DNA of 63,470 nucleotides, the filler included, from Atractiella rhizophila (lineage: Eukaryota), in assembly GCA_021432655.1 (NCBI GenBank). It is 7 parts of 6 records of this genome, joined end to end, with 100 filler letters (N's around TTAATTAATTAA, not from the genome) between each part and the next. Parts side by side here need not be neighbours in the genome. Positions count along the whole stretch, not along the records: positions 12,206 to 24,304 come from MU272016.1; 6 more parts are not named here. One strand, given 5' to 3'. Shown here one piece after another: positions 519-46,825 of the stretch. The stretch's first letter is position 1. Every line of letters begins with the position of its first letter. The notes beneath the pieces are model-generated. The model did no database searches. It was not told the origin of the DNA and was given only the letters and a program-made list of their open reading frames with translations. A program made the translations under genes and the position numbers.

Positions 519-976
519 GGTCGACTCTGCTCACGAATGGAATATTAGCGAGTAATGACAGTCAGTTGGCAGAGAGACCAACGAAAACCAGTGGGGGATT
601 ATTGTTCGAGATGGTGAATGTTGAGAATCGGATTGGTTACAGTTGAATCGCACGGTAGCCTTTATATCCTCCGTGTGGTAAAAAATATCAGCATCTGCGA
701 CCTAGTGTTGTGGAGGGACGGACTCCAGGAAGTTTTCCGGCAAGCTGGCCGTTGGCTTTGGGTGGTCGTGACCCAATTTCAACCAGAAACCTCCAGATGG
801 GGGCATGTGATACAAATAATATTCTACAGTAGCGTTATCGCTACCCCAAATAGCACTGAAAAATTCAGACACAAGTAGGAACCTGTCCTTGTCTATTCGC
901 AGCAAAACTTAATCTTGGACTAGGCTTAGGTTTGGTTAAACATACCAACGAAAGGACAAACTTCCTATAGTTCACC

Positions 977-2541
977 ATGGCCCCTCGCCTTACACGGCGC
1001 TCGCTCACGCTAGGGACACTCGCCTTGATATTCCTCTACCTTCTTTTTTCATACGACACCTCCCACTTTGGGCCATTGACACGCTACAGATATAGTGTGG
1101 AGGGATACACCCCAAGGACATTTAGAAAGAGAATTGTGGCCATTGGGGGTCTGTATCTCCGTCCATTGTCACTTATTCTACCTGTTAGACAGCTTGATTA
1201 CATCATAATTGACATTGTGGTTTCGCAGATATCCATGGAGACCTTCCTCATCTGACGAGGATTCTGCGACTGGCGAGCGTCGCTGACCATCGGCTGAAGT
1301 GGAGTGGGAAGAAGACAATCTTAGTTCGTGGGTATTTTCCCTTTCGATATGAGTCGCCGGTCCGCAAGCGGCCTCTAAACATCTAATACTTCGTGTCATC
1401 TGTCCCGTTGCTGATGCATTGGTTATTGGCTTACAGAGACGGGAGACATTGTGGATCGAGGTAGAGATACCATTGCAATCTATAAGCTTATGGAGAGCTT
1501 GCGGGAGGGAGCGGCGAAGGCAAAAGGCCAGGTCGTGTCCTTGCTAGGAAACCGTTTGTCTTCTGTCTTCCTTTGGTCTCATAATGCTTACGATGCTTGT
1601 ACTTCTGCTTGAAGATGAATACATGAATGCTCTCGGAGATTGGCGCTACGTTACCCCAGAGGATGTAGCGACGTTTGGGTCAGCTCGTGCAAGACGCCAA
1701 GCCATGACCTCTGGTTCGTTGCTCCCTTCTTCTCCCATGTGTTGCGCCACACTCTGATAAATTGAATATAGAAGGATGGATCGGACAATCCTGGCTTACA
1801 AACTACAGCACTACAGCTCGTCTACCCTACGCACTGACATTTCCTTCAATTTCTCCTCCACCTCAAACCTTAGACGCCTTCCCACCTCCGGATCCTTACA
1901 CCCCGCTCCCAGAATTCCCACCCTACTCACATCCTAATCTCTCCCTGTTTTCCACCGCTGCCGCCTCCTTCGTCCACGGTGGCCTATCTCCTGCGTATCT
2001 CACCACTCTTCCTGCTCCGCACCTCAAATCGTTGAACGAAATCGGACACTCGTTACTGGAGAAGGCGGTGAGACCTGTACCTTGGACAAGCACCAACAGT
2101 GCCCTGCCGGGCGATGCAACTACGGAGGAGAGGGAGTTTTATAGTAGTGAGGGACCAGTGTGGTGGAGGGGGTTTGCGACGGAGAATGATGAGCGGTTGG
2201 TCTGTGAGTGGGGAAGGAGGACGAGGGAGTTGCTAGGTGTGAGGAGGCTGGTGATGGGCCATACACCATTGTTGGTCTCATCATTCTCTAAAGCTGGGCC
2301 GACTAACAGGGATGGAATAGCTTGGAGGGCATAAAGACGCGCTGTAACAGCACTATAATCCTAATCGACACAGGTCTCTCCACGTGTGTCCGCCATTTTG
2401 CATTTCTCTCCTCTCTTTCCCACACATCGAGACTAACCCATCCTCTTGTTTATTTTCAACAGCTACTACTCTGGTTCCCTCTCCGCTCTTGAAATCCTCT
2501 ACTCCCTCGTACCCCAACCTCTCCTCGCCGATGCACGACCG
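977..2541 (+). CDS. Calcineurin-like metallophosphoesterase, Shewanella-like phosphatase type, with N-terminal signal anchor; 3' end in N gap
   Basis: Spliced exons give RIVAIG/DIHGD, TGDIVDRG, LLGNH/E, FVHGG, GPVWWRG, VMGHTP and IDTG; hydrophobic N-terminus TLGTLALIFLYLLF. Confidence 0.9.
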
Positions 2542-5525: not shown

Positions 5526-8500
5526 TCCAATTAGTCTGTACGTATGAATCCAAGGTAATACAGAATACCCGTGGAGGTGAAATTGCAAAGCAAAGACGAC
5601 AGTCAGGCAGGCATATGAGCTATTGAGTCTGATGCTTCTCTGACGCACACATCTCTACAGGTAGAAGAGCTACATGTCTCGGCAAAGTAAAAGGCAATGA
5701 ACACTTGCTCAACGATAATTATCGGCTTGAGATACTCTTTCTCATCTGGAAATGTCAAAAGGTTCACGGCCAACACGTATATGCTCCGCGGCTCAGCGAA
5801 CCGTCGGACAGGTCAGAAGTGGACTTGTGTAGAGGAGATCTATCTCCCTGAGGAAGGTTGAGCTTTGCCGGTGAGGGCATCATCCAGTCCAGTTATACCG
5901 ACTGATTCTCAGGACCCGCAGTTTTCAAAGAAAAGTACAACGATGGGGAGGGTTCTACTCCCCATGAAATACATCATTCACTCTAAACGCGTTTCAAGCA
6001 ACAGTTTTATCCCTTTTGATCAAGCATCTGAACCAGAAAACTGCAAGTTTCTCCCGCAAGGAAGAAGTAACAGGCGGGCATGTATCCATGTTGTTCACAA
6101 TCTGTTTCGCTTGTGATGCATGAATGAGCGAGTCGGCCCGAGCAGACCTCACAACTCACGACGGCTCTTTGAGCCATACGACATCTCTTCCTTATTTTGA
6201 CATTACTCAACGGAAGGAGCACTGACCATAGTCACATTATGGATGCAATGACACACCTCCCTGCTTCTCTCCCCACTGATATCTTTTTCTCACCCTACTT
6301 CAGCTCCCCTAAGCCATCCTCCAAACACATGAGAAAACCCAAAAGCTTTGCATGATCTTGGTTAACCTCGACCATTCGAGACCCTATTTTGTCCTCTTTG
6401 TCACTCACTGTACCTGCGACGGTACCTCCCTCGACTCCCATATCCAACGCCCGAATTGAGCCTCTTCACAGGACTCGAGAACAGTCACTGCTGCTCCTGT
6501 GCAGTCAAGTTGAGTGCCGTTGATCGCGTGGAGACTGCATTGCCTCCCTCCTCTTTCGATCACGCAGTTTCATTTCACATCGGTCTTTTCAGTCGCACAA
6601 AAAAGCATGGGTCTGAGCTGATAAGCCTCTCCTCTTTTTCAACGTCAGAATCTAGCCGTATTGTCGCTTGGGGTGTATCTTCCTTCCTTTGGAAACGAAC
6701 GAATTCTTGGGTGCTGGGTTACATACCATAGCTGGCTCTCTTTCCTTTGTCGGGCTAGGCTGGCCTTAGCTTTCCTCTGTTCAACGCGGCGCGCATTCAC
6801 AACATCATGAAGTCCTTCTTTTCGTCCTCCTCCTCCTTCGTCGAAGCTGCGAAACGCCGTCTCCCCTCGCCGTTGCGAGCCTTCATCATCCTCTCCCTCC
6901 TCCACTTCATCATCCAGCTCTCCCTCCAATCCGCCGCCTTTGCCCTCTCCACGAATGCCATTCCCGTTCTCCGAATAATCGAGGAGGCGCCACTGGGAAC
7001 GAATCCTAACGTCGTGCAGATCACGAGCGAAGGCAAGAACAGCGGGCTCAGATTGCTCAATTCCTCTCTAGCAGGATTAGCGAAGAGGGACAGGCAGGCA
7101 GAGGATGGGATACGCCAGCAGCTTTTTGGAGGCAATCTCAATGATACTTACGCTGTCTTCCAATTCGATGGTAACGATGAACCCCTCGTCGTTACTCGCC
7201 AATGCTCAATCGCGCTCGTCGAGCCTTTGCGGACGATGAGGAGGTTGCAAAGACAGATTTTCACTTTCCTCTTCTACCAGTTATGGATCACTGGCACTTG
7301 CTTAGTTACTGTCCGTTTGATCCCTTTGTTCCTTTCCCCACCTCTCCTTTTGCGCTTCGTTTTGCTGAGTTGTTCATGGTGGAATAGGTCCTCAATGCCT
7401 CTGTTCCCCATCTCATTTCTGTCCTCATCCTTCACGCCCTCAGCCTCGCTTACTCCCTCTTCCAAGCTGCACAAATGGCCTACTTTCACCGTGAATTCCA
7501 CCACGAAGTCTTAACCATAGCATGTGAGCAGATGTGGTTCAAGCCGTGCGTCCTCGGTGTCCATCCACCATCTACCTCATTGATTGATCAACGACTTACA
7601 CAGATCATACCTCCGCGAACTATACGCTCTCTCCCAAGCCATCTCCGTTACCCAAGCCCTCTTCACCATCCTCTTCTGCCTCGTCGCCTGGAAACTCTAC
7701 CCCGTCCTGGACTGGAACACCTGGCACAAAATCGGGGGCGACCGTCGCCAGAGCGCGCTCAACAAAGCGGTATTATCACTCAAAGTCAACCTCCAACTCT
7801 CCATGTTCTTCGTCCTCACCACCCTCGGCATCTACCTTTCCTTCCTCTTCGGTCAAAACAGTCTCGTCCCCCGAGCAGACAACGAACTCTTCGCTACTGA
7901 CAAATCTGTCAGAACGATTTGGCCAATTGTACTCACGGTCGCTGCCGCCTTCTTTATGCCTTGGCTGGCACTTGGGTTTTGGGTGGTGGGAGGACCGAAG
8001 AATAAGTTGAGCGAGAATGGAAGGAAGGTGATGAGGTGGATAGGAGTTGAAAGCGTCAGAGAATGGATGAGGAGCAAGAAACGTGTGAAAGGGTGGACCT
8101 TGGGAGAGGGTGAGAAAGCGGAATGGAAATGGTTTAATCTCGAACAGAAGTCCGGAGGATGGAAAGTGTCCAGGAAGACGGGCATGGCGGTTTTTTTGTT
8201 CTTTGGTGTGCTTTATATGTAAGTCTTCCCTGGATATCCCCCATCGCTGTCTTCTTCTCGTATTCCTGAACTCCCGTCCTAACTGAACTGGATAGTGTGA
8301 CTCTTGCCATCCTGACGTCAGTACAGATGATCCAATTAGTCTGTACGTATGAATCCAAGGTAATACAGAATACCCGTGGAGGTGAAATTGCAAAGCAAAG
8401 ACGACAGTCAGGCAGGCATATGAGCTATTGAGTCTGATGCTTCTCTGACGCACACATCTCTACAGGTAGAAGAGCTACATGTCTCGGCAAAGTAAAAGGC

Positions 8501-11137
8501 AATGAACACTTGCTCAACGATAATTATCGGCTTGAGATACTCTTTCTCATCTGGAAATCTCAAAAGGTTCACGGCCAACGCGTATATGCTCCGCGGCTCA
8601 GCGAACCGTCGGACAGGTCAGAAGTGGACTTGTGTAGAGGAGAACTATCTCCTTGAGGAAGGTTGAGCTTTGCCGGTGAGGGCATCATCCAGTCCAGTTA
8701 TACCGACTGATTCTCAGGACCCGCAGTTTTCAAAGAAAAGTACAACGATGGGGAGGGTTCTACTCCCCATGAAATACATCATTCACTCTAAACGCGTTTC
8801 AAGCAACAGTTTTATCCCTTTTGATCAAGCATCTGAACCAGAAAACTGCAAGTTTCTCCCGCAAGGAAGAAGTAACAGGCGGGCATGTATCCATGTTGTT
8901 CAACCAATCTGTTTCGCTTGTGATGCATGAATGAGCGAGTCGGCCCGAGCAGACCTCACAACTCACGACGACTCTTTCCGCCATACGACATCCCTTCATG
9001 ACTTTGACATTACTCAATGGAAGGAGCACTGACCATAGTCACATTATGGATGCAATGACACACCTCCCAGCTTCTCTCCCCACTGATATCTTTTTCTCGC
9101 CCTACTTCAGCTCCCCTAAGCCATCCTCCAAACACATGAGAAAGCCCAAAAGCTTTGCATGATCTTGGTTAACCTCGACCATTCGAGACCCTATTTTGTC
9201 CTCCTTGTCACTCACTGTGCCTGCGACGGTACTTCCCTCCACTTCCATATCCAACGCCCGAATTGAGCCTCTTCACAGGACTCGAGAACAGTCACTGCTG
9301 CTCCTGTGCAGTCAAGTTGAGTGCCGTTGATCGCGTGGAGACTGCATTGCCTCCCTCCTCTTTCGATCACGCAGTTTCATTTCACATCGGTCTTTTCAGG
9401 TCGCACAAAAAAGCATGGGTCTGAGCTGATAAGCCTCTCCTCTTTTTCAACCTCAGAATCTAGTCGTATTGTCGCTTGGGGTGTATCTTCCTTCCTTTGG
9501 AAACGAACGAATTCTTGGGTGCTGGGTTACATACCATAGCTGGCTCTCTTTCCTTTGTCGGGCTAGGCTGGCCTTAGCTTTCCTCTGTTCAACGCGGCGC
9601 GCATTCACAACATCATGAAGTCCTTCTTTTCGTCCTCCTCCTCCTTCGTCGAAGCTGCGAAACGCCGTCTCCCCTCGCCGTTGCGAGCCTTCATCATCCT
9701 CTCCCTCCTCCACTTCATCATCCAGCTCTCCCTCCAATCCGCCGCCTTTGCCCTCTCCACGAATGCCATTCCCGTTCTCCGAATAATCGAGGAGGCGCCA
9801 CTGGGAACGAATCCTAACGTCGTGCAGATCACGAGCGAAGGCAAGAACAGCGGGCTCAGATTGCTCAATTCCTCTCTACCAGGATTAGCGAAGAGGGACA
9901 GACAGGCAGAGGATGCGATACGCCAGCAGCTGTTTGGAGGGAACCTCAATGATACTTACGCTGTCTTCCAATTCGATGGTAACGATGAACCCCTCGTCGT
10001 TACTCGCCAATGCTCTATTGCCCTCGTCGAGCCTTTGCGGACGATGAGGAGGTTGCAGAGACAGATTTTCACTTTCCTCTTCTACCAGTTATGGATCACT
10101 GGCACTTGCTTAGTTACTGTCCGTTTGATCCCTTTGTTCCTTTCCTCATCTCCCCGTTTGCGCTTCGTTTTGCTGAGTTGTTCATGGTGGAATAGGTCCT
10201 CTATGCCTCTGTTCCCCACCTCATTTCTGTCCTCATCCTTCACACCCTCAGCCTCGCTTACTCCCTCTTCCAAGCTGCACAAATGGCCTACTTTCACCGT
10301 GAATTCCACCACGAAGTCTTAACCATAGCATGTGAGCAAATGTGGTTCAAGCCGTGCGTCCACGGTGTCCATCCACCATCTACCTCATTGATTGATCAAC
10401 GACTAACACAGATCATACCTCCGCGAACTATACGCTCTCTCCCAAGCCATCTCCGTTACCCAAGCCCTCTTCACCATCCTCTTCTGCCTCGTCGCCTGGA
10501 AACTCTACCCCGTCCTGGACTGGAACACCTGGCACAAAATCGGAGGCGACCGGCGCCAGAGTGCGCTCAACAAAGCGGTCTTATCACTCAAAGTTAACCT
10601 CCAACTCTCCATGTTCTTCGTCCTCACCACCCTCGGCATCTACCTTTCCTTCCTCTTCGGTCAAAACAGTCTCATCCCACGAGCAGACAACGAACTCTTC
10701 GCTACTGACAAATCTGTCAGAAAGATTTGGCCAATTGTACTCACGGTCGCCGCCGCCTTCTTTATGCCTTGGCTGGCACTTGGGTTTTGGGTGGTGGGAG
10801 GACCGAAGAATAAGTTGAGCGAGAATGGAAGGAAGGTGATGAGATGGACAGGAGTTGAAAGCGTCAGAGAATGGATGAGGAGCAAGAAACGTGTGAAAGG
10901 GTGGACCTTGGGAGAGGGTGAGAAAGCAGAATGGAAATGGTTTAATCTCGAACAGAAGTCCGGAGGATGGAAAGTGTCCAGGAAGACGGGCATGGCGGTT
11001 TTTTTGTTCTTTGGTGTGCTTTATATGTAAGTCTTCCCTGGCTATCCCCCAACGCTGTCTTCTTCTCGTATTCCTGAACTCCCGTCCTAACTGAACTGGA
11101 TAGTGTGACTCTTGCCATCCTGACGTCAGTACAGATG
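5526..11137. repeat. Direct tandem duplication of about 2.8 kb (5526-8329 and 8331-11137)
   Basis: Both copies begin tccaattagtctgtacgtatg and end gacgtcagtacagatg; near-identical with scattered substitutions and 1-nt indels; paired ORFs 6807/9615 and 5865/8670. Confidence 0.97.
6807..8329 (+). CDS. Multi-pass membrane protein, copy 1, truncated at the duplication junction
   Basis: Same exons as 9615-11512 but breaks inside the exon VTLAILTSVQM at 8329. Confidence 0.7.
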
Positions 11138-11512
11138 TTCCCCCAAGACACATGGGGCTTTCTCCTGTGCGTACCTCTCTTAGTCGATCGTCGCAAATTG
11201 ATTGATGAATACCAAACAATAAGTTTTCTTGACGGATGTTCCCTCCTCGTCACCCTCGCGACTCTGGGTTCAGCGATAGCTTGTATCGTGCTCTCAAACA
11301 AAGAGTTCTGGGACCGTACGTTTCCTCTCGTCCCATCTGTCGTCGCTTGAAGACAATTACTGATTGCTGTTTCGTGCTTTGCGTATGAATTAGATGGGAT
11401 GGGAAGTGAGACCTCGGATGATCGCAGTCTCGAGGATGGAGTGTGGGTTGGGAGGGGCGCCAGTGGTAGCTCCTGGGGAGAGGAGAAGATGGAAAAGGTC
11501 GTGATTGACTGA
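9615..11512 (+). CDS. Multi-pass membrane protein, complete copy; resembles fungal UPF0658-like Golgi membrane proteins
   Basis: Several hydrophobic helices across spliced exons; LVAWKLYPVLDWNTWHKIGGDRR resembles the WKLYxEFGWxIYKKIGAD pattern I recall for that family; last exon ends EKMEKVVID-TGA at 11512. Family call is tentative. Confidence 0.7.
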
Positions 11513-12105: not shown

Positions 12106-12205
12106 NNNNNNNNNNNNNNNNNNNNNNNNNNNNNNNNNNNNNNNNNNNNTTAATTAATTAANNNNNNNNNNNNNNNNNNNNNNNNNNNNNNNNNNNNNNN
12201 NNNNN
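12106..12205. other. Artificial contig-joining spacer N44-TTAATTAATTAA-N44; also at 24305-24404, 36498-36597, 43102-43201, 48351-48450 and 54096-54195
   Basis: Identical 100-nt structure six times; the 12-mer puts stop codons in all six frames; genes (SLD5, CK2) are cut at the spacers. Confidence 0.97.
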
Positions 12206-17266: not shown

Positions 17267-17695
17267 TCCTGTGGTTTATCCTCTCGTTTTGGTTTTGGAT
17301 TGTCCGTCGTTTATTTTGTTATAGAATGGAACGTTATATAAAACCTACAGTGTTCAAAGACTTGAAGATTGAATACTCTTGTAAAATGTTACTATAACTC
17401 TACCCACTTTCTTTTGTCTACTATGACGAAAGAGTGTAAACGACAGTCACGATTACACAAGGGCAAACATTGCGTGTTGTGGAATGGCTGGCGGTCAATC
17501 AGGCCCGTGACACGAAAGAGCTTCCATGTTGGTAGCGCAATGAAGTGTTGTTGAACGAGATACCCATCTTACTCTATTCAACAGACAACAACGGGGATTT
17601 ACATATTGTGAATTACTAGCCCAATACATGTACTGTACTCCTACAATTCAACTGAAACCAATTGTCCGCCGCGTTTATACAGTTCCCTTTCTTTT

Positions 17696-18015
17696 TTACG
17701 GACAAGGACAACAGCATGGAATAATGTAGCACACGCTACCATCGGGACAAGGAATACAGCCTATGGTGATGAATAACACCATGGAACGATCAAAACCTTT
17801 TACCGGAGCAAAGAACTAGCGAAAAACGCACCTCCTCGCAGCCTCATCACCTCAGCATCCTGCTTTCCCTCCCCTTTACGTTCCGTCCATTCTCCGCCGT
17901 CATTCATCTGTAATGGAATTGACATTTTTGGTTTGTAAGAGTACGAGGGAGAAGGTGGCTGTGGAATGGTAGTGTTGAGAGCGGAGGAAGGCTGGTTCAA
18001 CGTTGCTTTGGCCAT
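17696..18015 (-). CDS. 82-aa two-exon protein: disordered leader, MRLRGG, then CIPCPDGSVCYIIPCCCPCP
   Basis: Exon 1 18015-17832, intron GTGCGT..CATAG 17831-17761 (71 nt), exon 2 17760-17696 ending TAA; splicing keeps the frame. Confidence 0.75.
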
Positions 18016-18457
18016 TGCTGGGTTCGTGAATGGACGTTAAGATCGTTAGTTAAGGATTTGATGGGAGGTATAGCTCGTTTGAGAAGAGAAATGATGTGGG
18101 TTGCCCACTTTTATGTCACTTTTGCATGACGTAATTTGATCGTAACACCAGTAGCGGAAATGCGGGCTGTGTGCTGCACTCAGCTCCGCGCTGCGCAAAC
18201 TTTTGGCAGGGCAAACATAGACTATTGATGGTGTTGTATATGGATCCTACCAGCGCACCCTGACAAAGTGGACACGTCTAGTTAGACGAACCTGGCTACT
18301 CCCTTGCCTTGGAATAATCCTCGCACTGTTTTTGCGCAGCAGAAGGAAACATTCCAATATTTCGGATAACAGTATAGTTGCAGTTGACCTAGAAACTAAA
18401 GAAATTTCAGACCACCTTCCGAAAAGTCACCCCACTTGCCCAATACTTGCGGCTGCT

Positions 18458-19345: not shown

Positions 19346-20261
19346 NNNNNNNNNNNNNNNNNNNNNNNNNNNNNNNNNNNNNNNNNNNNNNNNNNNNNNN
19401 NNNNNNNNNNNNNNNNNNNNNNNNNNNNNNNNNNNNNNNNNNNNNNNNNNNNNNNNNNNNNNNNNNNNNNNNNNNNNNNNNNNNNNNNNNNNNNNNNNNN
19501 NNNNNNNNNNNNNNNNNNNNNNNNNNNNNNNNNNNNNNNNNNNNNNNNNNNNNNNNNNNNNNNNNNNNNNNNNNNNNNNNNNNNNNNNNNNNNNNNNNNN
19601 NNNNNNNNNNNNNNNNNNNNNNNNNNNNNNNNNNNNNNNNNNNNNNNNNNNNNNNNNNNNNNNNNNNNNNNNNNNNNNNNNNNNNNNNNNNNNNNNNNNN
19701 NNNNNNNNNNNNNNNNNNNNNNNNNNNNNNNNNNNNNNNNNNNNNNNNNNNNNNNNNNNNNNNNNNNNNNNNNNNNNNNNNNNNNNNNNNNNNNNNNNNN
19801 NNNNNNNNNNNNNNNNNNNNNNNNNNNNNNNNNNNNNNNNNNNNNNNNNNNNNNNNNNNNNNNNNNNNNNNNNNNNNNNNNNNNNNNNNNNNNNNNNNNN
19901 NNNNNNNNNNNNNNNNNNNNNNNNNNNNNNNNNNNNNNNNNNNNNNNNNNNNNNNNNNNNNNNNNNNNNNNNNNNNNNNNNNNNNNNNNNNNNNNNNNNN
20001 NNNNNNNNNNNNNNNNNNNNNNNNNNNNNNNNNNNNNNNNNNNNNNNNNNNNNNNNNNNNNNNNNNNNNNNNNNNNNNNNNNNNNNNNNNNNNNNNNNNN
20101 NNNNNNNNNNNNNNNNNNNNNNNNNNNNNNNNNNNNNNNNNNNNNNNNNNNNNNNNNNNNNNNNNNNNNNNNNNNNNNNNNNNNNNNNNNNNNNNNNNNN
20201 NNNNNNNNNNNNNNNNNNNNNNNNNNNNNNNNNNNNNNNNNNNNNNNNNNNNNNNNNNNNN

Positions 20262-21781
20262 AGGGAGGGTCAATCTACTGGAAGTGGACGATAAAAGCGA
20301 AGGCGCAGAAATAGAACGAGTGGAATCGGCCGTCAAGCTGCCAGGGATTGATCGTGTGGTAGGAAGCACGACAACGGGAACGCTGGCCGTAAGCAGGTCG
20401 CTTTCCTGGCTAGACGTCGAACCTCCGAGGAGGGCCAGGAACGATCGCGCGTCCATCCATTCCCAGCGATCCTCAGCTTCATTTCCCCTCAAAATCCATA
20501 AATCGTTCTCCGCCCCTTTCTTGCTCGCATCCAGCCCAAAACCAAATACTATGGTTGCCGTTTCATTGTCACCACGAAGTAGGACAGCAGAATGGAAGGC
20601 TCGAGAAGGGGAAGGGATGAGCGAAGAGGACGCGATCTGACGCCAAGTGAACAGCGTTGCGTTACATGAGGGATCTGGAGGGGAGAGGATGTACATAGTA
20701 GAAAGAGGAACAGAGGAGGAAGAAAGGCCACCATGGACGAGGATCCGTCCAGAAGGAAGCACGACGCAGGCGTGACCGCGCGTTGGAGGTGGACAGGTAG
20801 AGGAGCATGAGATCGTCTGTCTAAACATTAGAACAGAAGGCAGGAGCAAATGGTAGAGGTCAAACAAACCTCTGATGAAAATTCTTCCTTGACAGTGTCG
20901 AACAACAAGACAATCTCCATGCTGACCAGCTCTCCAGCAGGCGTCACACCTCCAAGGAAAGCAATCTTTTCTCCAATTGCACTCGCTGAATAATCGCTTC
21001 TCGAGGAATCAACCAGTTCTCCGTGTCTCTCCAATAGCTTCGGGTTGATGAGGCATTGCCGTCCCCTAGCCCGCCCATTTAATGGTACACAGTGAGCCAA
21101 GAGGAGATCACTCCTCGAAATTGCAATAAGACGCGCCGTGCCAGTTCTCTCAGTCCAAATATCCATGAACGGATACCCAACTGACTCTCCTTCGCTGCAT
21201 GTGCTATGATCCTCAAATCCACCGAAAACATAAATCCTCCCACGCAGTGAGACTGCCTGCGCTCCAATCCTTCGCGTCTCGCTTCTCCACCGTGGAACAG
21301 AAACCCATCCTCGGACAGATGGCTTATAAACATATCCCAAAGGTCGATCCTCAGAACAGTTCGCCCACGTCCCACCAATGGTCCACAGATCCCCTCTTTC
21401 TGAAATTGCATACGCGGAGGAGGAAATGTGGGAAGGGGGAGGAGGAAGAGTGCAATGGTGCTGATCTGAATGGCCGAGGTAGAAGAAGTCAACCTGATGG
21501 TCCGGAGAATCGTGACCACCAACGTAATAAATGACTTTTTCTTCTGGGATATAGAAAGTAGCATGTCCAAACCGAGACGTGGGGAAGACCAACGTTTCAT
21601 TTGGCGGGCCAGCAAGGGAGCGGTGCAGCCGTTGAGAGGATCGGCCAGAGGGATGACGGGATCCTTGTGCAAGAGGGAACAAGAGCACAAAAGACAGCAT
21701 GGAGAGATAGGAGAATTCTGAGGGGGTGGCGGGAGAAAACAGTGGATGGGGTGTGTACTTGAACGAGTGCGATAGTGGCAT
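20262..21781 (-). CDS. Kelch/galactose-oxidase-like beta-propeller protein, probably secreted or membrane-anchored; 3' end in N gap
   Basis: Repeated kelch motifs RFGHATFY..IYYVGG, RRIGAQAV..IYVFGG, RSDYSASA..IAFLGG, RGHACVV..ILVHGG, RAFHSAVL..IVFGFG; signal-like MLSFVLLFPLAQG at 21700; Ser/Thr-rich stalk. Confidence 0.8.
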
Positions 21782-21924
21782 GAAACCATGAAGAAAAGTG
21801 AAAATGACATAGACCGTCAGTTGGACTTTGAGGAATCACATGACACAGACGAGGTCTAGCAAAAACCTCAATGATATTGCACAAGTACAGAGTAGCGAAA
21901 TAGAACGAACAAAATCAATTAAGC

Positions 21925-24853: not shown

Positions 24854-27800
24854 TCAGCTCACTCCCAAACCCAGCGGAGGTGCTCGATTCTTCCTCTCCT
24901 CCTTCTTTTCATCCCCAATCTCCATTCCCACCTTCGCCATCCCCTTGTTAAGCTGCTCTAATAAAGCACAAGCTTGACAGAACTCCTGAGAAGAAAGGGA
25001 GCCGCAAGTTCTACATGCCTCTACACCACATTACCATGTCAGCCTCGCTTTCATCACATCGAGAAGAGGCAGAAAGAGGGAGAACGCACGCTGAACCTGC
25101 TTCTTTGGTGGAGCGAGGCAAGCTCGACCTCTCTTGGGTTGGGAAGAGGAGCGAAGCGACATTGATGCGGCCATCGCCTCCCCACTGTAAATCTATTTCT
25201 CCATCTATATGAGCCAGTGGGGATTCAGGGGAACTTGGCGTACGATGTCGACAATGGCTGTGCTACGACGTTTCTCCAGATCCTTCACGAGCGCTCTCGC
25301 ATGCCCTCGATAGGCTGTAGGAGAATAGATGCACTCTGTTGAATGGTAATCGAGTTTCTATTGCATTCACCTCAGCACTTTTTTGGGATAGGGGGAGAGA
25401 GAAAGGACCACCTTAAAATAGGCATACATCACGATCTCCTTTTCATAAGCATACTTGAACGGTTTGCTCCTCTTAATCGTCCGTGGAAGCTTCAATCCAT
25501 CTTCGTCATCCTCATCTTCATTCTCATCCCAGTCCCCACCTGTCGTGACCGCCGTGCACCTTCCCAGTCGCGCAATGTCGCCCCTGAGCACTTCCAACGG
25601 CAACAACAAACCATGACTGTTGCGAAGAAGACTCGCACGGGAATACTCACCATTCATCAATATCGTCTCGGCCACATCATCTGCATTGTGACCTGTGACT
25701 ACGTGATCAACCGCGAGCAGGTGAGCGCCTTTATCGAGGGCCTGCCTTCGAAAGACTCCACAATAAGTGCCTTCCTTGCAACCGTTTCAGTCTTCACGCG
25801 GACCAGTAAACACCGAAAATGAACGCACAATTACCCTTCTTCCCAATCTCACCCACGACTCTATCCATCGTCCAACCTCCATACAGCTGCTCGTAAGATA
25901 AGATCTTGAGCGGAAGACTATATTGCTCTGAATTCCGCTTCACTGTCTTCCTAGCAATCTCGTGAGCATGATGGTTTGGAATAGATCGGGAGGTCACAAC
26001 GCACTTCCAGTGAGGCGTCCCGATACCCTGATATCCCCTCATCGATGCTGAGAAGGCAGAGATCGAGTCCGTACGAATATCGCTCGTTGAGAACTTTCAT
26101 CACATGTGCCAAAACGGTGGAATCTAGAAATGCGCATGTGAGCAACCCGTTTTTGCGACGCTACGGAACCAAAAATGTTTCTAATCTTCGAATTCCACAA
26201 CGCAGAACGGAGGAAACCGAGCCAAATCGCAGTAAGTGCATAAAACATCGAGAAACGTTGCATTTTTCGCTTAGTCTAGATTCTGGAACATTGCATTTTT
26301 CTCGCAAAATGATCGCTGCAGACAACACGCAAAAATACAAAGACAAACGTCTCCATCCCAGATGCTCGACACCCGAACGACGTAAGCCAAACAACTAAAT
26401 AAGCGTGAAACGTGAAATGTATTCTGGCAGAAATAAGTAATCTAACTGCTAACAACGAGTGGGCAAAGAAAAGCATGTTTTCAGAATCCATTCCACAGCA
26501 TACTTAACTGCACAAGACGCATGTATATCTTGTCATTATTCTACCGTTTTAGGATGCAAGGGTAGGTCGAAGAAAGAATTGTGCGAGTGAATCAACTATT
26601 ACAGATATGAAACAAGCTGTTCTCTTCTGCGATACGCTTAGTGCATTGGACTACGAGGGAGAGATGGCCATGCATAAGAGGGGAATCATGAAATCGAATA
26701 GGATAGAAATCAGGGATGCGATCAAACAATGATTGAAATGGTGGAATAGTTCTTCTCCCTCGAAACTCTTCACAGATAAAGATGAAAACTTGTTTAACGC
26801 GGGAAGCTTCTTTCGCCATGGTAATTTGCTCAGTGGCTACATTTTTATAAGTACATCTCAGTGACAATTGTCAGGCAACGCGATTGCTAATAGTAAGAGC
26901 ATTCTCGTGGGGCAAACTGTCGTTTGAGTTGTGTAAAAGTTCAATATCATATACGCACAGAGAGCTACGCTCAACACCATGGAAAGAAGGAAAACGTGGA
27001 AGATAATCCACAAAATGCGATCACAGAGATGAGTGGATGAAATCTTCACAAGTCGTGAGCGGCCATCGCCTCCCCACTGTAAATCTATTTCTCCATCTAT
27101 ATGAGCCAGTGGGGATTCAGGGGAACTTGGCGTACGATGTCGACAATGGCTGTGCTACGACGTTTCTCCAGATCCTTCACGAGCGCTCTCGCATGCCCTC
27201 GATAGGCTGTAGGAGAATAGATGCACTCTGTTGAATGGTAATCGAGTTTCTATTGCATTCACCTCAGCACTTTTTTGGGATAGGGGGAGAGAGAAAGGAC
27301 CACCTTAAAATAGGCATACATCACGATCTCCTTTTCATAAGCATACTTGAACGGTTTGCTCCTCTTAATCGTCCGTGGAAGCTTCAATCCATCTTCGTCA
27401 TCCTCATCTTCATTCTCATCCCAGTCCCCACCTGTCGTGACCGCCGTGCACCTCCCCAGTCGCGCAATGTCGCCCCTGAGCACTTCCAACGGCAACAACA
27501 ACCATGACCGTTGCGAAGAAGACTCGCACGGGAATACGCACCATTCATCAATATCGTCTCGGCCACATCATCTGCATTGTGACCTGTGACTACGTGATCA
27601 ACCGCGAGCAGGTGAGCGCCCTTATCGAGGGCCTGCCTTCGAAAGACTCCACAATAAGTGCCTTCCTTGCAACCGTTTCAGTCTTCACGCGGACCAGTAA
27701 ACACCGAAAATGAACGCACAATTACCCTTCTTCCCAATCTCACCCACGACTCTATCCATCGTCCAACCTCCATACAGCTGCTCGTAAGATAAGATCTTGA

Positions 27801-29358
27801 GCGGAAGACTATATTGCTCTGAATTCCGCTTCACTGTCTTCCTAGCCATCTCGTGAGCATGATTGTTTGGAACAGATTGTGAGGGTCACAACGCACTTCC
27901 AGGGACGCGTCACGATACCCTGATATCCCCTCATCGATGCTGAGAAGGCAGAGATCGAGTCCGTACGAATATCGCTCGTTGAGAACTTTCATCACATGTG
28001 CCAAAACGGTGGAATCTAGAAATGTGCATGTGAGCAACCCGTTTTTGCGAGGCTACGGAACCAAAAATGTTTCTAATCTTCGAATTCCACAACGCAGAAC
28101 GGAGGAAACCGAGCCAAATCGCAGTAAGTGCATAAAACATCGAGAAACGTTGCATTTTTCGCTTAGTCTAGATTCTGGAACATTGCATTTTTCTCGCAAA
28201 ATGATCGCTGCAGACAACACGCAAAAATACAAAGACAAACGTCTCCATCCCAGATGCTCGACACCCGAACGACGTAAGCCAAACAACTAAATAAGCGTGA
28301 AACGTGAAATGTATTCTGGCAGAAATAAGTAATCTAACTGCTAACAACGAGTGGGCAAAGAAAACCATGTTTTCAGAATCCATTCCACAGCATACTTAAC
28401 TGCATAAGACGCATGTATATCTTGTCATTATTCTACCGTTTTAGGATGTAGGGCTCAGTCGAAGAAAGAAATTGCGAGAGGTGAATCAACATTACAGTCT
28501 AGAGACAAGCCGTTCTCTTCTGCGATACGCTTAATGCATTAGAATACGAGGGAGAGATCGCCATGCATAAGAGGGGAATCATGAAATCAAATAGGATAGA
28601 AATCATGGATGCGATCAAACAATGATTGAAATGGTGGAATAGTTCTTCTCCCTCGAAGCTCTTCACAGATAAAGGTGACAACTTGTTTAACACGGGCAGC
28701 TTGACATGATATATTCCTCAGTAGCTGCATTTTTATACGTACATCTCAGTGACAATTGTCAGGGACGCGATTGCGATTGCGAATAGTGAAAGCATTCTCG
28801 GGTGGCGAATGCTCATTTGAGGTGAGTCGTGTAAAAGTTCAAATATCATATAGGTACAGAGAGCTACCCTCGACACCGTAGAAAGACCAACGAAATACGA
28901 TCACAGAGATGAGTGGATGAAATCTTCACAAGTCGTGAAAGGTTGATATTTTGCATGACTTGACGCAAAAGACTTGAATCTTCATCGCAAAATAAGCCTC
29001 GAGAATCGGACAAGTTATTCGTCAACAAGGATGAATAAAGATGACGGCGAGGAAAAGATTAAAACAGAAAGTTACACGAATTGACCAGGCCAGTGGCAAT
29101 CGTCCAGCTACCCAAACCTGAGGCTAAGAAAAGCAAGAAAGACGTACCTTTCCCACCACTCGCGCCGATCGCGACCCTCTCTCCCTTCCTAAACATGGGT
29201 TTTCCCCCCTCCGCCACCCCTTCTCCCATGATGGTATGATGCACTTCTGTCTCGAAGACTTGGAAGAAACAGTCGAGACAGGTCGGCTGCTGGGTTTTCG
29301 GACGGCGGAGGATGGCGCGGGATTGGGAGGATGGGGGACAGAGGGAACACGGCGCCAT
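24854..29358 (-). CDS. NCS6: Cytoplasmic tRNA 2-thiolation protein 1, interrupted by an internal 1.9-kb duplication
   Basis: [104 protein letters not shown]; stop at 24854. Confidence 0.95.
25167..28938. repeat. Direct tandem duplication of about 1.9 kb (25167-27058 and 27059-28938) inside NCS6/CTU1
   Basis: Both copies start gcggccatcgcctcccc and end gatgaaatcttcacaagtcgtga; exons near-identical, intron segments more diverged. Confidence 0.97.
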
Positions 29359-45559: not shown

Positions 45560-46825
45560 CTAGTAAAAGGTGGAGAGAAAGGCAGCACCCGTAGTCTCGA
45601 CAATAGAATTGACGACATTCACGCCCAACTTCCTCAATTTCGCCCACGCCTCTGCCTCTCGAGCGGTGGGGGAAAAACTTCCAGCCCGCGCATTAATGAG
45701 CATCACCCAGCATTTCAGTAACTCCTCTTCTCTCTTCTTCATCAGCACTTGCAGCATTGCGAACCGGTTAGACTCCTGTGAGAGATGAAGTTCGATTGTC
45801 TGTATTGGAGCCTTCTCAAATAAACCAATTATGACGCCACAATGTCGTTGGTTGATCGCCCGCAATGTCAGCTTTTTGAGCTTCTTGAAGTCTATCGGTT
45901 CCCAGATCGATGTAGAGAGGTCCATGTCGTGCTCGTAATCGTCGAATTCTATCTCCTGTAAGGAGGCGGCAGATGCAGCGAAGAGGGAATAAAGCGAGTT
46001 GAAGTCGAAATCGAGATACAAGTTGTTCTGGTTCGTGAAGCTGAGAGTTTGAAGATAACAGGGCAGGCAGTGCGACCGCAGGACGAGGTCAGATTGATTG
46101 AACATGACCCCTAGAGCAAGGTGCTTGAGGTTTGGGGATGACAGCAGACTGTCCTCGGGCTGTCGACCTCCGCTTTGACTGAAGATTATATCCAATGGTC
46201 CATAGATATTGAGCGAGATTCGTTCTACGGGCGCATCTCGGAGAGCATGAAGCAGCGAAGTAACTGAGAACGAGTCGTCTCGCCCCGATTGGAACGACAG
46301 GTCCATCTTCACCGCTCTCAAGTAGTGATATTGTTCCAAGGACTCCTCCAACCCATGGATGAACACTCCAGCCCATTGGTTACTCTTTAGTGTCCTATAA
46401 TTTCCAAGTACCGTCAACTCGACAGTTTCGATCTCGAAGCCCTCTAAGGCTTTCACGCATTCGCTTAAGTACTGAATCTGCTTCTTGATGTCCAAATTGT
46501 TCGAAAAAAACTCATGTTCAAGCAAGCAGATGCGTAGATTCCGTACAGAGGAAAGGGCAGGGTGTGAACCGATGGGTCGCAGATAACGACGGCTCTTCAT
46601 GGGATACGGTCCATCCCGTAATCCCAGATCAGCAGAAAAGGTGACGGTGCGGAAAAGGCTAGGTGTGACGAGGTCGCGCACGAGGTGGGAAACGAGAGAG
46701 AGAGATCGGAGAGTTTGGGGAAAGGTGGAGTGTATGGATAAGATCTGATCGACTAGTTCACGAGGCAAAGAAAGAAGGCGGAAAGGCGAGTCAGGCATGT
46801 TGTTGCTGTTACTGTCTTGAGACAT
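45560..46825 (-). CDS. F-box/LRR-like protein, single exon, 421 aa
   Basis: LLSLPRELVDQILS...LRSLSLVSHLVRDLVTPSLFRTVTF, then LKHLAL, LQTLSF, LKKLTL. Confidence 0.8.
   Translation of the reverse strand: MSQDSNSNNMPDSPFRLLSLPRELVDQILSIHSTFPQTLRSLSLVSHLVRDLVTPSLFRTVTFSADLGLRDGPYPMKSRRYLRPIGSHPALSSVRNLRICLLEHEFFSNNLDIKKQIQYLSECVKALEGFEIETVELTVLGNYRTLKSNQWAGVFIHGLEESLEQYHYLRAVKMDLSFQSGRDDSFSVTSLLHALRDAPVERISLNIYGPLDIIFSQSGGRQPEDSLLSSPNLKHLALGVMFNQSDLVLRSHCLPCYLQTLSFTNQNNLYLDFDFNSLYSLFAASAASLQEIEFDDYEHDMDLSTSIWEPIDFKKLKKLTLRAINQRHCGVIIGLFEKAPIQTIELHLSQESNRFAMLQVLMKKREEELLKCWVMLINARAGSFSPTAREAEAWAKLRKLGVNVVNSIVETTGAAFLSTFY

Follow-up and report, generated by a model that had tools for sequence, protein, structure and literature searches.

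Proteins of the CYSTM superfamily are built on a common plan (PMC2804304). They are small; a variable, non-globular, Pro/Gln-rich N-terminus comes first, then a short conserved extended element (e.g., QQPVYVQQQP) and a linker that varies, and the extreme C-terminus is occupied by a Cys-rich module in which 3-4 cysteines are consecutive. In the published alignment the linker holds a basic position ('+' at 80% consensus), and fungal rows show Gly runs ending in GGC before the module ('...SGGCM' in Laccaria and Agaricus, 'RGG...GGGSGICA' in Aspergillus), some of them carrying RGG after the strand (PMC2804304). According to the available part of Giolito et al. (PMC10840359), the CYSTM proteins of yeast carry palmitoyl groups and come off membranes upon hydroxylamine treatment, their Cys module is argued not to be a transmembrane domain, and N-terminal green fluorescent protein fusions mark the plasma membrane, so the head presumably stays joined to the tail. 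The subject of this work is a gene on the minus strand (17696-18015) of a 63,470-nucleotide stretch of Atractiella rhizophila DNA (assembly GCA_021432655.1; the whole stretch is hereafter called the window), whose product recalls this plan and joins a Cys-rich tail to the pentapeptide RLRGG.

As judged from its alignment, the gene belongs to a family that is uncharacterised, spans a phylum, and keeps the junction R-x-R-G-G-C-x-P almost unchanged. The product is most likely a lipid-anchored, cysteine-rich stress protein, and we put at slightly better than even the chances that it is an uncleaved, S-acylated, CYSTM-like membrane-associated protein. A sequence-only reading of the window, centred on release of the tail by a deubiquitinase, had raised the palmitoylated Cys-tail anchor (CYSTM) as an alternative; weighed against the comparisons below, this alternative would be the best reading.

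The family was retrieved with phmmer (E<=1e-3), using the NCBI Atractiella protein as query. There were 14 matches, 11 of which, besides the query, are small proteins ending in RLRGGC[IV]PCPDG..C[YWF]IIP..CCC, and two, long low-complexity proteins, were set aside. A profile made from the small-protein matches found 236 proteins at E<=0.01; the details given here rest on 120 of these 236 matches, with 127 family sequences used for motif counts. All the organisms named by the source among the listed matches belong to what we take, from the names, to be Basidiomycota genera (only Atractiella was looked up), and among the listed members are many Agaricomycetes, together with Dacryopinax and two Pucciniomycotina, Mixia and Atractiella. 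They are annotated as hypothetical, except for 3 listed ones termed 'CYSTM domain-containing' by UniRef. Longer, fused forms of the family were not found in the search, which is weak evidence. A metagenome scan with the pattern GGC[IV]P[CL]P[DNG]G, blind to genomic loci with an intron after CPCP, gave 205 matches, of which 3 passed; one locus, L003, was rejected as fortuitous, its frame having a stop upstream.

Conservation of RLRGG in homologues, which the earlier reading could only propose for a search, is found as R-x-R-G-G in 125 of the 127 sequences, together with the cysteine that follows it (R.RGGC, 125/127), and GGCxP is present in 127/127; the two exceptions are PLRGG in Mixia and RLDGG in one transcript-derived member. 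In the six-frame translation of the window RLRGG occurs three times (mean 0.39 in 100 mononucleotide shuffles), and as a string alone it is not beyond chance. It is the retention of R-x-R-G-G in 125/127 relatives that makes the motif non-random and, therefore, under selection. Column counts were taken over 98 aligned sequences, once 29 had been left out (24 models with truncation or read-through, and 5 sequences redundant within clusters), and they describe the family as retrieved, the profile having been seeded with motif-bearing sequences. Within the motif they are R58 97, L/I/M59 95, R60 97, G61 98, and G62 98; after it, C63, P65, and C72 are invariant (98/98). The leader has conserved columns of its own (P20 96, Q28 96, P29 98, M35 91), forming the motifs YPP and [VI]xxQPxPxxxM, from which the Atractiella leader diverges with Q19, K28, and L35 where the consensus has Y, Q, and M. 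Conservation is therefore continuous across the GG-C junction and extends into the leader, which fits a single functional polypeptide.

Members are 62-256 aa long (median 77), and their tails after GG comprise 17-21 aa, with medians of 7 Cys and 4 Pro. The C-terminal module follows the pattern C-x-P-C-P-D-G-x-x-C-[YFW]-I-I-P-(I-P)-C-C-C, and its last residues are PCCC in 43 of the 98 sequences and CCCC in 16, others including CICC and CPCP. A sub-branch (P0067, P0068, P0073, P0083, P0088, P0098, P0101, P0104) reads CIPLPNGGRCWIIP: Leu stands in place of the second Cys and the loop contains an Arg, while R[LM]RGG is kept. Schizophyllum commune has one member of each type (P0010, P0068), and there are therefore at least two paralogous lines in the family. 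Laccaria bicolor has a canonical CYSTM protein and a family member (P0047), and for Agaricus bisporus, too, records exist of a canonical protein and of a family member (P0077), the canonical basidiomycete rows of the published CYSTM alignment being the Laccaria protein and Agaricus dag8 (PMC2804304). Since both kinds occur in these two fungi, the family is a lineage separate from canonical CYSTM.

In Atractiella rhizophila, the coding sequence (minus strand, 18015..17832 joined to 17760..17696) gives an 82-aa product ending in MRLRGG-CIPCPDGSVCYIIPCCCPCP. The features of the gene are as follows:

18016..18048, minus strand: 5' untranslated region, minimum extent, from contigs of runs X1, X2, and X13.
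18015-18013, minus strand: start codon ATG, with an in-frame TAA 8 codons upstream.
17832..18015, minus strand: coding part of exon 1, from M1 to G61 plus base 1 of the G62 codon; disordered Pro/Ser-rich leader.
17911..17967, minus strand: leader core, residues 17-35 (IPQPPSPSYSYKPKMSIPL), aligned with the family motifs YPP and [VI]xxQPxPxxxM.
17832..17844, minus strand: R-x-R-G-G codons, R58 L59 R60 G61 (17844..17833) plus the first base of G62.
17831..17761, minus strand: 71-nt GT-AG intron, phase 1, inside the G62 codon, from GTGCGT to CATAG.
17696..17760, minus strand: coding part of exon 2, the last two bases of G62, C63..P82 (CIPCPDGSVCYIIPCCCPCP), and TAA at 17698-17696.
17623..17695, minus strand: 3' untranslated region, minimum extent (X2 contig from 17623, X1 contig from 17655).

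The frame from the ATG at 18015 to 17833 reads MAKATLNQPSSALNTTIPQPPSPSYSYKPKMSIPLQMNDGGEWTERKGEGKQDAEVMRLRG; base 17832 opens a Gly codon and is followed by GTGCGT, the codon of G62 being split by the intron and completed by bases 17760-17759. Exon 2 translates as G(62)C IPCPDGSVCYIIPCCCPCP, then TAA. Thus, the RLRGG followed by a 20-aa, 7-Cys tail that had been claimed from the sequence appears on translation of the spliced minus-strand coding sequence. When unspliced, the frame stops after RLRGGAFFASSLLR, giving 71 aa.

The 71-nt GT-AG intron at 17761-17831, for which the earlier reading had stated no strand, proved correct on the minus strand. The evidence consists of contigs of public runs, not reads, aligned over 17400-18400. 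The sole joint in this interval skips 71 bases (17759/60 to 17831/32), with ends CT..AC on the plus strand, that is, GT..AG on the minus strand, and it occurs in three runs from different studies: X24 (two contigs, depth 6268), X1 (a contig of 334 nt, with 106 letters on the shorter side of the joint), and X2 (416 nt, with 138). Unspliced contigs are present in X24 as well, at depths of 81 and 144, contig depths being unusable as expression levels. The spliced form sought by the sequence-only reading is therefore found in contigs; the kind of X24 is unrecorded, X1 and X2 are guessed to be RNA, and none of the three is on record as such. X13, the only certain RNA run, spans 17916-18048 and stops short of the junction. 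Contigs of X1, X2, and X13 cover exon 1 and reach 18048, beyond which their letters are unlike the window (loose ends); the uncovered stretch 18080-18400 is uninformative.

The NCBI protein BT69DRAFT_1286740 (Atractiella rhizophila, hypothetical) has the identical 82-aa model and exon join, with one difference, M37T. In X24, both window letters and variant letters are present at 17881, 17896, 17905, 17906, and 17914, and the changes at 17905 and 17906 produce M37T; because X24 carries both variants of this residue, the two Atractiella forms appear to be alleles or haplotypes present in a single organism. The variant contigs of X1 and X2 are identical to the window over 17696-17759 in exon 2, with 0 changes in 62 exon-2 coding bases vs 6 in 184 exon-1 bases, numbers too small for meaning, and at 17654-17692 the X1/X2 contigs differ from the window by 7 substitutions and 2 indels. 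In the DNA of the relatives L001 and L002, RLRGGCIPCP is uninterrupted, and therefore the Atractiella splice restores the conserved reading. The gene and its splice are real, doubt being removed by the NCBI model and the contiguous relatives. Of the earlier reading's refuting outcomes, a missing spliced form and a motif not kept in homologues were checked, and neither was observed.

The sequence-only reading had also argued that the tail has an exon of its own. This holds for the Atractiella genome; it does not for relatives, where the intron sits elsewhere (L001 and 21/127 models), and the argument drawn from it fails for that reason. L001 is coding through RLRGGCIPCPDGSMCYIIP, followed by a 55-nt intron (GTAAGT...TTCAG, 2107-2161) and by CCCCF-stop, which places the intron after YIIP; P0006, the database protein from this contig, is a read-through form ending in IIPVSAS. 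In 21 of the 127 predicted proteins the family likeness ends right after C.PCP, at a Val (GTN), and P0106, P0107, and P0116 have an in-frame insert after C.PCP before continuing normally with DGGCCYIIP... or GGGTCCIIP.... An unspliced intron after C.PCP would presumably give such read-through models, as far as protein models, not DNA, can tell. No intron is present in the family gene of L002, whose contig may be a transcript assembly. On these models there are at least three intron positions, none shared with Atractiella. In L002, which is a metagenome contig, an uninterrupted 308-aa open reading frame (890-1816, minus strand), hydrophobic by eye, is convergent with the family gene.

The leader had been described as having no ubiquitin fold, and structural prediction agrees. 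AlphaFold2 (AF2), run with the 98-sequence alignment, gives no secondary structure (mean predicted local distance difference test score, pLDDT, 63; predicted template modelling score, pTM, 0.17), the Atlas model has a pLDDT of 0.25, and no beta-grasp fold N-terminal to GG was found by AF2, in the Atlas, or by Pfam on the gene pieces and P0003. Pfam/NCBIfam searches of the gene pieces, P0003, and family members returned nothing usable, and P0003 has no match to the CYSTM model, PF12734. At residues 58-62, RLRGG has the form of the C-terminal R-x-R-G-G of ubiquitin and ubiquitin-like (UBL) precursors. As in CYSTM, the protein ends in a Cys-rich module that contains consecutive Cys, and the [VI]xxQP element (Q28 96/98, P29 98/98) resembles the published 'VYVQQQP' when compared by eye, with no strand in AF2. 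Among ESM-Atlas feature clusters, the one closest to the whole protein has 534 members and is named 'CYSTM domain-containing' (score 0.92, 189/256 features shared); when the tail is taken by itself, PF12734 is carried by the nearest clusters with a name (0.79), a lead only.

The gene, its splice, the family, the conserved motif, and the lack of any fold are shown here; that the protein is acylated, binds membranes, serves in stress or metal tolerance, and is left uncleaved is what we infer. The CYSTM-like protein would be small, cytosolic, and kept intact, with a disordered Pro/Ser/Gln-rich head and a C-terminal Cys/Pro-rich module; this module would probably be multiply S-acylated (palmitoylated), holding the protein on a membrane, and it would work as the CYSTM/CYSPD proteins do, which in yeasts, plants, and animals contribute to tolerance of stress and metals. 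R-[LIM]-R-G-G would correspond, in the family, to the hinge of basic residues and glycines found ahead of the Cys module in canonical CYSTM proteins, its basic residues facing acidic lipid or an acyltransferase and its glycines providing flexibility, and the identity with the ubiquitin C-terminus would be coincidental.

Several results weigh against this proposal. PF12734 matches 0/98 members at E<=1 and 0/5 at E<=10, the three UniRef-named CYSTM proteins included among the five. The tail is not helical in AF2, contains 2-5 Pro, and its best 19-residue Kyte-Doolittle window is 1.2, and therefore it would not form a helical membrane segment. The acidic residue that is a hallmark of CYSTM after the Cys patch is absent, D/E occurring within the last 6 residues in 0/98 members. 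Because the Pfam model, the helix prediction, and the terminal acidic residue all fail, the family is filed as CYSTM-like in its probable mode of action and not as a demonstrated member. Literature searches by motif strings and member locus tags, with the supplementary tables of other papers outside their reach, returned nothing relevant. Finally, canonical CYSTM conserves a single basic linker residue (PMC2804304), and a generic hinge would not need the two Arg and the two Gly to be as nearly invariant as the column counts show, a strictness that is left unexplained.

It is this strictness, unaccounted for by a CYSTM-like protein, that keeps alive the idea that a protease reading R-x-R-G-G, for example a ZUFSP/Mug105-type deubiquitinase, cuts between G62 and C63, releasing a peptide of about 19 residues that begins with Cys and is lipidated or binds metal, and leaving a leader that ends in -RLRGG. 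In the available part of PMC5824887, ZUFSP makes two salt bridges to R-x-R and has a tunnel admitting only Gly, and ZUFSP/ZUP1 and S. pombe Mug105 cut bare RLRGG-aminomethylcoumarin (RLRGG-AMC) with a kcat of 4.9-7.2 s^-1; the ZUFSP family is reported there to be widespread in fungi. As bare R-x-R-G-G peptides are cut, the idea is not chemically far-fetched; the positions fixed in the family, with each Arg and each Gly retained in 97-98 of 98 sequences and the whole motif in 125/127, are those that ZUFSP enzymes read, and AF2 places the motif in a disordered, accessible stretch. We nevertheless regard it as unlikely. Among the computed results, none on any member supports cleavage directly, and C63 and P65 (a P1' Cys and a P3' Pro) are as invariant as the motif, which a site of the ubiquitin-tail type would not need. 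The leader, moreover, has conserved motifs too, relatives do not have their intron at the proposed site, and the architecture fits CYSTM/CYSPD proteins. Typical deubiquitinases need the ubiquitin/UBL fold, and, as far as the available part of PMC5824887 goes, USP21 does not cut RLRGG-AMC, ISG15 is not processed by ZUFSP even though it ends in RLRGG, and ZUFSP requires both arginines, one of which is lost in the PLRGG of Mixia and in the RLDGG of the transcript-derived member. The cleavage-blocking mutations of Sde2/SDE2 described in the available part of PMC13572447 all lie on the UBL side, GG motif included. Less likely again is the fuller version of this idea, in which the family would be the first natural fold-less substrate of a ZUFSP/Mug105-type R-x-R-G-G peptidase, with the G62/C63 cut yielding a lipidated or metal-loaded peptide. 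After such a cut, the disordered leader, bearing ubiquitin's pentapeptide end, could be degraded via GG or even conjugated.

A different use of the cysteines is conceivable, in which the tail acts as a soluble thiol or metal buffer, binding Cu(I), Zn, or Cd or quenching oxidants in the manner of metallothioneins, with no lipid anchor. A median of 7 Cys in 19 residues, with CxxC and a terminal CCC, would suit such a role, as would the Cd and Cu tolerance conferred by plant CDT1-type CYSTM proteins and the chelation proposed for the superfamily (PMC2804304). The gene also diverges from a SCO1 copper-chaperone gene (PF02630) 443 bp away, an adjacency given no weight, and no SCO1-like sequence lies beside the family gene in L001 or L002. 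Pfam returns no metallothionein family, the second Cys of CxxC is Leu in 13/98 members, and the conserved I64, [YFW]73, I74, I75, and P76 are unlike metallothioneins as generally known. This buffer is improbable, if somewhat less so than cleavage, and it overlaps with the CYSTM-like proposal, in which an anchored protein could bind metal too. Very improbable, by comparison, is a ribosomally synthesised and post-translationally modified peptide (RiPP) or pheromone-like precursor whose leader motifs recruit modifying enzymes and whose GG is the leader/core boundary. The layout of leader motifs, GG, and a Cys/Pro-rich core would allow it, bacterial double-glycine leaders having GG directly before a Cys-rich core, and the named matches among those listed are confined to one fungal phylum. 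Against it, no tailoring enzyme is evident nearby, the neighbours being SCO1, a Kelch-repeat gene, and open reading frames without a Pfam family; the product has no signal peptide and the family no consistent CaaX ending; and the core is highly conserved across the phylum, which, to our knowledge, known fungal RiPP cores and pheromones are not.

As for the surroundings of the gene, the SCO1/SenC gene contains introns, extends from 18458 to at least 19340 on the plus strand (PF02630 on three exon pieces, best E=3.8e-15), has its ATG 443 bp from that of the studied gene, and is cut short by a run of 916 N (19346-20261). Beyond this run lies the Kelch-repeat gene (20270-21835, minus strand), with matches to the KLHDC2/KLHL20/DRC7 Kelch model (E=1e-7, 1.2e-9) that are below the curated cut-off. 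Mammalian KLHDC2 reads C-terminal Gly-Gly degrons; the proximity of the Kelch gene was given no weight.

Elsewhere in the window there is a tandem head-to-tail duplication of ~2.8 kb (5526-8333 and 8331-11141, 97.9% identity) in which the set of open reading frames occurs twice; two of the three RLRGG occurrences of the window, both as LRLRGG, lie there in short antisense frames, one per copy (7508 and 10316, minus strand), and were dismissed as chance. A second direct duplication, of ~1.8 kb (25163-26987 and 27056-28886, 95.3% identity), holds near-identical open reading frames of 135-137 aa at 25985-26398 and 27883-28290. A Cys run at 46768 (plus strand) was rejected as a CYSTM gene, being antisense to a 443-aa open reading frame. 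The N of the window total 1876: the 916-N run, a run of 432 (2542-2973), and six 44-N pairs, 12 bases apart, at 12106, 24305, 36498, 43102, 48351, and 54096, which look like masking or scaffolding, not biology.

The family is present in most of the mushroom-forming fungi sampled, has no Pfam model, and is the subject of no paper found in the literature search. If its members are CYSTM-like lipid anchors, a stress-tolerance superfamily would be extended by a clearly different, proline-rich tail, whose invariant residues would form a clean set for mutation. Were R-x-R-G-G truly a site of cleavage, a ubiquitin tail would for the first time be seen to signal processing in the absence of a ubiquitin fold, and the family would provide a physiological peptide substrate for ZUFSP-type enzymes, whose preference for a bare pentapeptide is currently unexplained. 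The alignment shows a ubiquitin-tail motif that is truly conserved and currently unexplained.

Among known systems, the fungal copper metallothioneins and the bacterial double-glycine leaders likewise involve short Cys-rich peptides and lack the C-terminal hydrophobic IIP-IP-CCC motif of the family; the searches run here detected no sequence similarity to either, Pfam gave no metallothionein match, and the tail retains I64, [YFW]73, I74, and I75. Ubiquitin and its fusions share with the family the pentapeptide itself, RLRGG being identical to ubiquitin's five C-terminal residues, and further polypeptide after it. Unlike ubiquitin and Sde2/SDE2 (a UBL followed by GGKGG), the family has no beta-grasp fold and no Pfam ubiquitin match; moreover, in the available part of PMC13572447 the blocking mutations of SDE2 map to the UBL, whereas the family is also invariant after GG. 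The peptide substrates of ZUFSP/ZUP1/Mug105 have the motif in common with the family, R-x-R-G-G being read without a ubiquitin body at the same five positions that the family conserves (PMC5824887); the only known bare-peptide substrate is synthetic (RLRGG-AMC), the available part of that paper describes no natural fold-less one, and the family would be a putative case.

The closest comparison is with the CYSTM/CYSPD proteins (PF12734; yeast Cpp1-3/YDL012C, S. pombe Uvi15, plant PCC1, CDT1, and human CYSTM1). The family tail differs from theirs in being Pro-rich, non-helical, and devoid of the terminal acidic residue, with no Pfam match, and in its extra invariant elements, R-x-R-G-G, C-x-P, and the PDG turn. 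The Pro/Gln-rich, non-globular head, the short element ending in QP, and the variable linker with a basic residue and glycines look alike in the two when compared by eye. What they share is a small size of about 60-150 aa, a C-terminal Cys module and, as the likely common mode of action, palmitoylated membrane attachment.

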